64,000 bases of DNA, from contig JAZRKN010000015.1 of assembly GCA_045646345.1 (NCBI GenBank), forward strand, positions 32,001-96,000. The letters are read 5' to 3'. The position numbers were made by a program, and so were the translations under genes. The notes under the pieces are model-generated. The model saw only the letters and a program-made list of their open reading frames with translations, was not told the origin of the DNA and ran no database searches. Shown piece by piece: positions 10,411 to 12,081 of the stretch. Source of the stretch: Candidatus Scatovivens sp. GTDB lineage: Bacteria; Bacillota; Clostridia; TANB77; CAG-508. How positions within the stretch are numbered: the first letter of the stretch is position 1; each line of letters begins with the position of its first letter.

Positions 10411-12081
10411 ATGGAAGAAGAACAACATATTGACGAAACATTATTTTGGGAAGTACCAGAAATAGATTTAAACCTAAGACATTATTCTGGTGGACCATCT
10501 GATGTTATTAAAAGAATAAAAACAGATATCGAAAAATATTTAAGTAATCCAAATCTAAAGCCAAATCAAGCAGTTGTTCGTTATACAGAAGCTGGTGTGC
10601 CATATCTTGTAAGATATAACCTAAAAGAAGTTTATTCTGCGATTTATAATGCTTTAAACTATTACAAAGATATCTCTTATTTACCATCCGCTGAATATGG
10701 TACTGGTGATACATTTTTATCAAATTCAATCAGAATATTTAACGAAGACTATGACTACCTATCTTCAAAATATAATTCTTCTGATTCAAATGATGCACCA
10801 GTAATTAGCTTTAGTGGTAGAATTAAATCACCATTAAGCCTAGTTGATAAAATTAGAGAAAAAGTATCAGAATATATTGAAGAAGATAGAGACTTCGGCT
10901 ATTTCAATGAAAGCTTAAGAGACTTAATTGGAATGAGAGTTGTTGTAAATCCCCCAAAAGAAATTCAAGATCAAGGATTACAAGCTGAATCTGATTATTT
11001 ATATAAAGTGTTTTATGATTTAATGCAAAGACACGGTATTACAGGAACCCCAAGTCCTGAAGTAACTCAAAATGGAACATTTTGTTTTATACCAGTAAAC
11101 ACAAGACATGATCCGCATAAAGCTGAAAAATTAAAAGCAAGACCAGAAATTGAAGGATTTGCAGACTTTATTGAAAACGAAGAAGTTAAGATATTTATTC
11201 CTAAAACAAGACCTTTTGAAATAGAACAACCTTGCGTTGACTCTGTACTAAAAGATTATTGTAGATTTCCAAAACACAAAGGATATCAAAGTTTACACGT
11301 TTGTATTGTACCTTATTACTCAACAAATGTAGAACATCTAGAAATACCAAATTGTATATTACCACCCAAATGTAAATCCAGTGTTTTTGAATATCAATTT
11401 AGAACAGCAAAACAAAATGACTATGCAGAACATGGTAAAGCATCTCATAATGTAGAATATAAACCAAACAATATTTACCATAGATTAGCAGTTCCATTTT
11501 ATATAACATTTGACTCTTTAGAAGATTTAAGTGAAGACTCTTATACTCCACAAGAAAAAATTTCAAAACCAATTAATATAAAAAACAAATTAAGACTTAG
11601 AAATTTTGGAGAATCATTTAAGAAATTTTATGGATTTACTTTTGAAGAATACTTTGGAATTCCATTTAAGAAGTTTAGAGATTCATTTGAATCATCCGAC
11701 AGAGATGCAGTACTTGCAAAAACTAAAGAAGTTAGATTTGATGAAAAACAAAACAGATATTATACAGTAACTTCTAAAGAAGCTGGAAGCAAAGTCGTTT
11801 TAACATTATCACAAGAAGATGTTGAAAAATTAAAACAACTTTTAGAAGAAGTAAAATCTACAGATCTTTTGAGATTCTTTGAAACATCTCATTTAATGGA
11901 TGGTTTAAAAAATCCATCAATAACTACAGATCATCATCCTCAAGTTAGACATAGACCATTTGAATTATATCAATTAGAGTCTTTTGCAGACAGAGCAGAA
12001 CCTCACATAAATCAATCTGCTTTAACTCAAGAACAAACTTTTTCAGAAGCTGCTGGTAGTATTACTTTAGATGAAAAATAG
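10411..12081 (+). CDS. RelA/SpoT synthetase-domain protein (no HD, TGS or ACT domain)
   Basis: GRIKS, DLIGMRV, KDY, GYQSLH, EYQFRT and AEHGKASH..YK in canonical order. Confidence 0.85.
   Translation: MEEEQHIDETLFWEVPEIDLNLRHYSGGPSDVIKRIKTDIEKYLSNPNLKPNQAVVRYTEAGVPYLVRYNLKEVYSAIYNALNYYKDISYLPSAEYGTGDTFLSNSIRIFNEDYDYLSSKYNSSDSNDAPVISFSGRIKSPLSLVDKIREKVSEYIEEDRDFGYFNESLRDLIGMRVVVNPPKEIQDQGLQAESDYLYKVFYDLMQRHGITGTPSPEVTQNGTFCFIPVNTRHDPHKAEKLKARPEIEGFADFIENEEVKIFIPKTRPFEIEQPCVDSVLKDYCRFPKHKGYQSLHVCIVPYYSTNVEHLEIPNCILPPKCKSSVFEYQFRTAKQNDYAEHGKASHNVEYKPNNIYHRLAVPFYITFDSLEDLSEDSYTPQEKISKPINIKNKLRLRNFGESFKKFYGFTFEEYFGIPFKKFRDSFESSDRDAVLAKTKEVRFDEKQNRYYTVTSKEAGSKVVLTLSQEDVEKLKQLLEEVKSTDLLRFFETSHLMDGLKNPSITTDHHPQVRHRPFELYQLESFADRAEPHINQSALTQEQTFSEAAGSITLDEK

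Follow-up and report, generated by a model that had tools for sequence, protein, structure and literature searches.

Exported alarmone synthetases without immunity genes have been described among the RelA/SpoT homologues (RSHs); some of them make only (p)ppGpp, and one clade adjoins type IV secretion system (T4SS) genes (passages of PMC12691689). Synthetase-only proteins that remain unclassified, entered as 'Rel[S]', occur in Blautia and Roseburia (rows of Dataset S2 of Jimmy et al., 2020). Here we describe a synthetase-only RSH gene of Candidatus Scatovivens sp. (order TANB77, family CAG-508), which lies at 10411-12081 on the forward strand of a 64,000-nucleotide stretch of contig JAZRKN010000015.1, the whole of which we call the window. 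Judged by sequence, its product belongs to a clade of RSH synthetases that appears to be new, resembles Rel in its (p)ppGpp-type synthetase and is possibly an exported effector. As the best reading we tentatively favor a (p)ppGpp synthetase that is exported by a T4SS. The features of the gene on which the argument draws are as follows, in window positions.

10411..12081, forward: synthetase-only RSH gene (P0001), 556 residues, supported by homologues and an AlphaFold2 model
10447..10785, forward: conserved helical N-terminal region (residues 13-125), mean conservation 0.58
10816..10941, forward: Syn1/Syn2, with R137, K139, S140 and K147 of the ATP site and D171 for Mg2+
11032..11247, forward: folded insert (residues 208-279) in place of the short alpha13-beta3 'PXPGR' loop of Rel
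11251..11298, forward: G-loop/Syn3, KDY...PK..GYQSLH, with the acceptor-stacking Y292 and H296, both invariant in 101 homologues
11389..11463, forward: Syn4/Syn5, E327-x-Q329-F-R and the long-RSH-type AEHGxASH..YK; E327 and K351 invariant
11464..11910, forward: family-specific C-terminal domain (residues 352-500); folded alone, predicted local distance difference test (pLDDT) 72 and predicted template modeling score (pTM) 0.55
11911..12078, forward: polar, poorly conserved tail, disordered from residue 532, with the acidic end LDEK; candidate export signal

Catalytic core, insert and C-terminal domain

An earlier, sequence-only reading of this DNA had named the synthetase motifs, and the positions that it gave are exact (GRIKS 10816, DLIGMRV 10921, GYQSLH 11281, EYQFRT 11389); KDY is at 11251 and AEHGKASH at 11425. 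R137, K139, K147 and D171 do not vary among 101 close and 35 diverse homologues; S140 is kept in 100 of the 101, and the catalytic residues stay invariant down to about 20-30% identity. RelA_SpoT is the only Pfam family above cut-off (50.1 bits against a cut-off of 27); HD, TGS and ACT, which the same reading had reported as missing, gave no Pfam match. Its statement that there is no hydrolase is true of the gene and false for the cell, since the same genome encodes a 732-residue Rel with intact HD motifs and a 162-residue stand-alone HD_4 protein, so that hydrolases are available in trans, besides a 252-residue RelQ-like small alarmone synthetase (SAS).

The AlphaFold2 model (pLDDT 87, pTM 0.87) is disordered only in the first five residues and from residue 532. 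In a fold search it matched Rel (6yxa, Z 9.3, root-mean-square deviation 6.5 over 169 aligned residues) and the exported synthetase SaEAS (8vx3, Z 8.6, 4.3 over 167), followed by RelP/Q (Z 7.7-8.0), CapRel (6.9), Tas1 (5.3) and the FaRel2 complex (4.7); these scores are modest, and the top matches (Rel, SaEAS, RelP/Q) lie within about 1-1.5 Z of one another. Both sequence and fold, that is, the Syn1-5 residues and a nucleotidyltransferase-like fold, place the protein in the SYNTH superfamily. The N-terminal region falls within the range aligned to residues 156-340 of Bacillus subtilis Rel, and the AEHGxASH..YK segment aligns in a profile alignment with AEFGIAAHWAYK of the Rel of this genome. 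No signal peptide or membrane segment was found by a simple hydropathy check, which is not SignalP (maximum 19-residue hydropathy 0.51, net charge -7 in residues 1-30).

Which nucleotide does the enzyme make? The motifs are SLH, GMR and QFR, not the GxN, RYT and YH that define Apk, and SxH in syn3 is a (p)ppGpp-type signature, in an account that also holds that motifs alone do not set product specificity (passages of PMC12226406). From these residues we consider (p)ppGpp the probable product. Where RelSeq has Asn306, which contacts guanine, the family has S, K or R; we considered this loss as a specificity switch and dropped the idea because the RelQ-like SAS of the genome also has S there.

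The spacer between DLIGMRV and KDY, noted earlier as unusually long, is indeed 103 residues, against 26 in both the Rel and the RelQ-like SAS of the genome. It holds the insert, whose pLDDT is mostly above 90 in the AlphaFold2 model and which we placed by profile alignment to the genome's Rel. In Rel, the activator DarB binds a surface next to the GDP site to which the alpha13-beta3 loop contributes (passages of PMC9848473). The insert may therefore have a regulatory role, and self-inhibition through extra domains, proposed in the sequence-only reading, is plausible from its position. One subclade (L075, L102, L130 and P0168-P0174) has about 200 residues more at the insert site, giving proteins of 570-650 residues. 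As for the C-terminal domain, it resolves better inside the full-length model than alone, and no fold match to it was found: the best Z was 2.6 among 48,161 chains, and Foldseek and Atlas searches gave nothing usable. CapRel was not among the matches to this domain, in searches whose query model reached a pTM of only 0.55, so the domain may yet be of CapRel type.

The acidic tail and the chromosomal type IV secretion genes

Conservation is 0.23 across the tail, the last 50 residues of which are nearly unalignable, and 0.55 in its last four residues. Taking as an acidic end any of DD, DE, ED, DxD, DxE or ExD within the last seven residues, we found one in 85 of 101 homologues, and in 72 of 85 once the tails had been de-replicated, whereas the same motif occurs in 2-24% of internal windows of the homologues and in 146 of the 1393 proteins of the genome (10%). 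None of 28 shorter clostridial relatives has it.

Do other proteins of this genome end in the same way? We compared 98 of 145 tail-positive open reading frames (ORFs), those in the 40 tiles (at most 20 kb each) richest in them, with 120 random ORFs of the 511 tail-negative ones in the same tiles; the ORFs came from a simple caller, Pfam was scanned at E<=1e-8 and blanks were tallied by hand. No Pfam family was assigned to 46 of the 98 tail-positive and 32 of the 120 tail-negative ORFs (p 0.003), and among soluble proteins of at least 200 residues the blanks were 27 of 57 and 4 of 49, respectively (odds ratio 10, p 1e-5). After weighting, about 61% of soluble orphans have the acidic end (5-28% carry the motif internally), compared with 14% of known proteins (8-18% internally); in this one genome the excess is thus limited to the extreme C terminus of the orphans. 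The acidic ends of orphans often read D/E-D/E/G-R, and the tailed proteins include several enzymes of nucleotide metabolism or kind (Zeta-toxin-like, HD, adenosine deaminase and PfkB). Homologues of one tailed orphan were found in only one other genome of 74, too few to judge conservation of its tail. The acidic-ended orphans form a candidate set of T4SS substrates. C-terminal tails are common as T4SS signals, and the E-block of Legionella is acidic (passages of PMC10025392). Whether the tail of the synthetase is such a signal we regard as evenly balanced.

The genes expected of a producer of T4SS substrates, for a coupling protein, VirB4 and a channel or pilins, are present here. A VirD4 coupling protein gene lies amid housekeeping genes; VirD4 was found in 59 of 61 relatives and a VirB4-like ATPase in 59 of 61, across all five families and mostly in single copy. 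On another contig the genome has the following block.

G000:C14:133442-155594: T4SS block of seven pilin-like genes, a 111-residue gene, a VirB4-like ATPase and large Pfam-blank proteins

T4SS_pilin scored above cut-off in three of the four pilin-like genes scanned, and VirB4 was matched by PF19044, PF03135 giving no match. A full-length EssC of a type VII system was not found. Five genomes of the genus have a split VirB4, with the break near residue 330-370.

The core VirD4 is itself split into two overlapping frames (G000:C11:129170-131231), and in all 12 of the loci listed the split falls at the same GTA-CGG-AGG stretch just before Walker A, whereas a single long ORF encodes VirD4 in G001 and G008, as it does in most genomes from other families. 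The genome shows no tRNA-Arg(CCG) and has only 66 CGG in 444,436 codons, and the split is a candidate for programmed +1 frameshifting, with CGG as the hungry codon. The genome encodes another VirD4-like membrane protein, degenerate and of 786 residues (G000:C15:214739-218707), among housekeeping genes near a Replic_Relax-family protein of 311 residues. The core VirD4, VirB4 and pilin set is similar to the chromosomal T4SS on which the epibiotic growth of Patescibacteria depends (parts of PMC12102498 and PMC12857230). In the passages we have of a paper on TANB77 pilins, a Tad cluster is described and VirB2, TrbC, T4SS and conjugation are not mentioned.

How might an exported synthetase work in this setting? 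The enzyme would move pyrophosphate from ATP to GTP or GDP to give (p)ppGpp, and its acidic C-terminal end would route it via the chromosomal T4SS into a contacted cell, where the delivered synthetase would force a stringent response. The target would be a host bacterium, whose growth and nucleotide pools would be redirected. Until export or the binding of a partner, the insert, on the face where DarB activates Rel, would hold the enzyme quiet, and the producer would be spared without an immunity gene by the HD domain of its own Rel and by its small hydrolase, which would remove (p)ppGpp. A producer that tolerates leakage, through its own hydrolases and perhaps gating by the insert, would explain the missing immunity gene. 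More broadly, TANB77 may be host-contacting, with a domesticated Patescibacteria-like T4SS that injects dozens of acidic-tagged effectors, including a Rel-derived synthetase that seizes the stringent response; this is possible, but we would not yet expect it to be so. If it were true, the acidic tag would make it possible to predict from sequence which effectors this abundant, uncultured order of gut bacteria has.

The chromosomal slot and the descent of the family

The flanks and signals of the gene in the window are these.

8762..10000, reverse: U32 peptidase gene (TrhP-like), the divergent flank that marks the slot; adjoins the synthetase in 34 of 40 loci
10346..10374, forward: probable sigma-A promoter; -35 TTGCAT (3/6), 17-nucleotide spacer, extended -10 TG-n-TATAAT
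10402..10406, forward: ribosome-binding site AGGAG, from the sequence
12107..12148, no strand assigned: bidirectional terminator-like hairpin common to the synthetase and the convergent gene; 16 bp, -18.5 kcal/mol
12188..12520, reverse: 110-residue gene, a fragment like glycosyltransferase family 2 (GT2), the convergent flank after rplQ; present in five of five tested synthetase-less genomes

The gene is monocistronic and runs counter to the local genes, as had been reported from the sequence. That it also has a promoter and terminator of its own was borne out in part. The extended -10 at 10366-10374 is perfect, and an exact TGnTATAAT lies upstream of the synthetase in 22 of the 33 homologous loci listed (counted by eye), but the -35 box matches at only three of six positions (by eye) and a consensus promoter scan, which found 30 sites against 28 expected by chance, listed none for this gene. 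Similarly, the hairpin has T-runs on both strands but the terminator scanner did not list it. The earlier observation of no visible antitoxin holds across the genus, in that a co-oriented ORF of at least 80 residues within 300 nucleotides occurs at none of 40 loci, a count made on ORFs of that size, which leaves room for smaller ORFs and RNA antitoxins. With a Rel, a RelQ-like SAS and a small hydrolase present, a dedicated antitoxin would be unneeded if the product is ppGpp. The 110-residue neighbor was considered as a dedicated antitoxin and ruled out, being on the opposite strand and present in genomes that have no synthetase; it consists of an N-terminal hydrophobic segment and a fragment weakly like GT2, and is not found next to the synthetase of G008. 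The dapB and U32 peptidase genes are separated by a 309-residue coiled-coil orphan (4859-5788, reverse) and a 900-residue DUF2157 membrane protein (6044-8746, reverse), the latter recurring in some relatives. The genome comprises 1.79 Mb in 19 contigs.

Among proteins of 305-973 residues, 142 are homologues at E<=1e-3; at 974-2780 residues none was found, though this is weak evidence. When 1.84 billion representatives were searched with a profile, 31 matches fell below 1e-30. A diverse profile found matches at E<=1e-16 in 48 of the genus's 75 genomes, 40 of which carry the present clade. All 40 loci adjoin the U32 peptidase gene and/or the GT2-fragment and rplQ genes and so represent one chromosomal slot, in which three further genomes have a far more divergent synthetase. 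The slot is empty in G029, G021, G249 and G004, and the nesting of these genomes within carrier clades points to repeated loss; in G261 and G271 the gene copies are split. Across 192 genomes from other genera of the family the best match (E 5e-31) came from shorter relatives of about 280-350 residues, and 24 genomes of other families gave no match to the single synthetase protein. Further solitary Rel-type synthetases, of 270-420 residues, are found in other CAG-508 genomes; many are counter-oriented, they sit amid housekeeping genes in slots that differ between lineages, and they make up a radiation without a classification so far.

In a tree of 130 columns and 143 of 159 rows (16 were dropped for gaps), which contained no reference toxSAS or Apk sequences, the slot family (FastTree Shimodaira-Hasegawa support, SH, 0.92) nests with the shorter Rel-type synthetases of other genera (SH 0.945); the RelP/Q-like rows are distant, on a branch of 0.77 with SH only 0.58. 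Among the 45 closest pairs listed (one a duplicate of a single genome), the ratio of nonsynonymous to synonymous substitution (dN/dS) is 0.12-0.65 for the synthetase versus 0.02-0.10 for its U32 neighbor, and over 406 non-independent pairs the identities of the synthetase track those of the neighbor (Spearman 0.78). The synthetase evolves several times faster than its neighbor, under purifying selection, and the gene is old, vertically inherited, fast-evolving and dispensable. It is not mobile: searches of viral contigs and of plasmids turned up no relative, phage records gave only weak core-motif matches, for a shorter relative, PHROGs gave only weak core matches, and PADLOC gave only E 0.0025, over the core motif.

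The sequence-only reading had suggested a new subfamily, and the clade is indeed genus-restricted and falls outside RelP/Q, Tas1/Apk and the two-gene toxSAS. A grouping inside RelP/RelQ, which it had named as one finding that would undo this, was looked for and is absent (NF053588 12.3 against a cut-off of 320). The likeness that it drew to (p)ppApp effectors and to toxSAS of the mobile, anti-phage kind found no support, because the motifs are of (p)ppGpp type, inheritance is vertical and there are no viral or plasmid relatives. Its suggestion of export gains circumstantial support only, from the conserved acidic C-terminal end and the core-genome T4SS.

Competing explanations and known systems

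Several observations weigh against an exported (p)ppGpp synthetase. The acidic pattern was picked after we had viewed the ends of the family and some orphan ends, and it holds in only 24 of 37 members of the more diverse slot family. The tail-less shorter clostridial relatives are mostly also solitary among housekeeping genes, so the solitary layout is in itself no sign of export. The synthetase gene is on another contig from the T4SS locus, to which it is unlinked. An acidic end could instead protect a flexible tail against proteases that act at the C terminus. Among T4SS tails, many are basic rather than acidic (passages of PMC10025392 and PMC8740702), the coupling protein is not essential in Patescibacteria (as described in part of PMC12102498), and tRNA-modifying toxSAS are inseparable from others by sequence motifs (part of 10.1101/2021.04.30.441581). 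A complex prediction of VirD4 (1-430) with synthetase residues 355-556 scored 0.00, which is evidence neither way.

Could the enzyme simply stay at home? It may be a cytoplasmic accessory (p)ppGpp synthetase, descended from the Rel-type synthetases of about 300 residues that are common in gut Clostridia, with the insert and C-terminal domain as built-in sensors for a lineage-specific stress and an acidic end that merely stabilizes the tail. Vertical inheritance in one slot (40 of 40 loci), divergence in step with the U32 neighbor, a sigma-A promoter of its own, (p)ppGpp-type motifs, nesting among tail-less solitary synthetases of other genera, hydrolases in trans and an insert in place of the Rel loop that DarB uses (PMC9848473, same part) are all what such an enzyme should show. 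A gated cytoplasmic synthetase accounts for everything but the tail: why an acidic end is kept on an otherwise unalignable tail, and shared with orphans, it leaves unexplained. Also, the genome already has three RSH genes for stress signaling, and evolution several-fold faster than a housekeeping neighbor, with repeated loss, sits poorly with it. We regard this explanation as a substantial possibility, short of probable. That the protein is instead a self-inhibited toxin, pyrophosphorylating tRNA like CapRel or making (p)ppApp and held by a C-terminal fused antitoxin until a phage trigger releases it, strikes us as unlikely. The extra C-terminal domain, rapid divergence and patchy presence would fit an arms race, CapRel (7ztb) aligns over model residues 28-408 (at the Z given above), and the tRNA-modifying toxSAS have no clear sequence signature (10.1101/2021.04.30.441581, same part); yet the core-chromosome slot is fixed, relatives are absent from viral contigs and plasmids, the phage and PADLOC matches are weak and confined to the core motif, CapRel comes below Rel and RelP/Q in the fold search, and Syn3 is GYQSLH, as against GYRGIH (capRel), GYRGVH (faRel2) and GYRDLN (relV) in the rows of the published alignment. 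Least credible of all is a dead or decaying remnant serving only as a nucleotide-binding scaffold, for which losses in several lineages, the split copies and the replaced Asn306 might be cited: every catalytic residue is invariant to about 20-30% identity, dN/dS is below 1 in all 45 closest pairs listed and the RelQ-like SAS has S at the Asn306 position as well. For the exported synthetase, which we continue to favor with due reserve, the conserved acidic end is the observation that sets it apart.

At the least, our study adds a clade of RSHs not described before, which has a new domain and, at a known allosteric face of Rel, an insert. If export is true, the protein would be a case of a Gram-positive T4SS delivering an alarmone synthetase derived from Rel, a clue to the lifestyle of the uncultured, small-genome TANB77, an order linked to immunotherapy response (passages of PMC11680825), and its end would be a sequence tag for substrates of the secretion system. 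In the literature within reach, which excludes most subscription papers, neither this clade nor an acidic tag in TANB77 turned up as described; the clade could be among the candidates of PMC12691689, and Dataset S1 of Jimmy et al. may bear on its subfamily assignment.

How, then, does the protein relate to the systems already described? With the toxSAS (CapRel, FaRel2, PhRel, PhRel2) and Tas1/Apk2 it has in common that it is a fast-evolving, synthetase-only RSH, CapRel also being C-terminally extended, but the present gene is non-mobile, has no antitoxin or immunity gene, has other Syn motifs and gives lower fold scores with them. The two-gene toxSAS (FaRel, FaRel2, PhRel, PhRel2) have an antitoxin gene, and no conserved co-operonic one occurs at any of the 40 loci; of the marks of Tas1/Apk, neither GxN/RYT/YH nor a PAAR or MuF domain nor an adjacent immunity gene is present. 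RelP/RelQ (SasA/SasB) share the SYNTH fold, the SxH motif, a chromosomal location and the lack of an antitoxin; however, at 556 residues the protein is more than twice as long as these enzymes (about 200-250), it has AEHGKASH instead of FWAxLEH, and the genome holds a separate RelQ-like gene. In the part of the SAS alignment file of Jimmy et al. at hand, its motifs are matched only by plant Rsh4 rows.

The exported alarmone synthetases (SaEAS, VpEAS/RelV and AaEAS; PMC12691689, in part) likewise have a synthetase-only, isolated gene with no immunity partner. The present protein differs in lacking a Sec signal peptide and any LXG, PAAR or MuF domain (no Pfam export domain), in its Rel-like rather than Apk1-like motifs and in that its candidate signal is C-terminal, so that it is a candidate for export only. 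The Rel[S]-type relatives are Rel-type synthetases of about 280-420 residues with the AExGxAxH motif and solitary genes, the present clade having in addition a longer insert, its C-terminal domain and an acidic tail; the gut-clostridial Rel[S] rows are probably its wider family. Finally, with the Rel of Firmicutes (B. subtilis Rel, 6yxa and 8acu; RelSeq, 1vj7) it shares the best fold match, the Syn1-5 residues and AExGxAxH..YK. It is nevertheless no long RSH (TIGR00691 22 bits against a cut-off of 499): it lacks HD, TGS and ACT, and it has a 103-residue spacer where Rel has 26, and a new C-terminal domain and tail.

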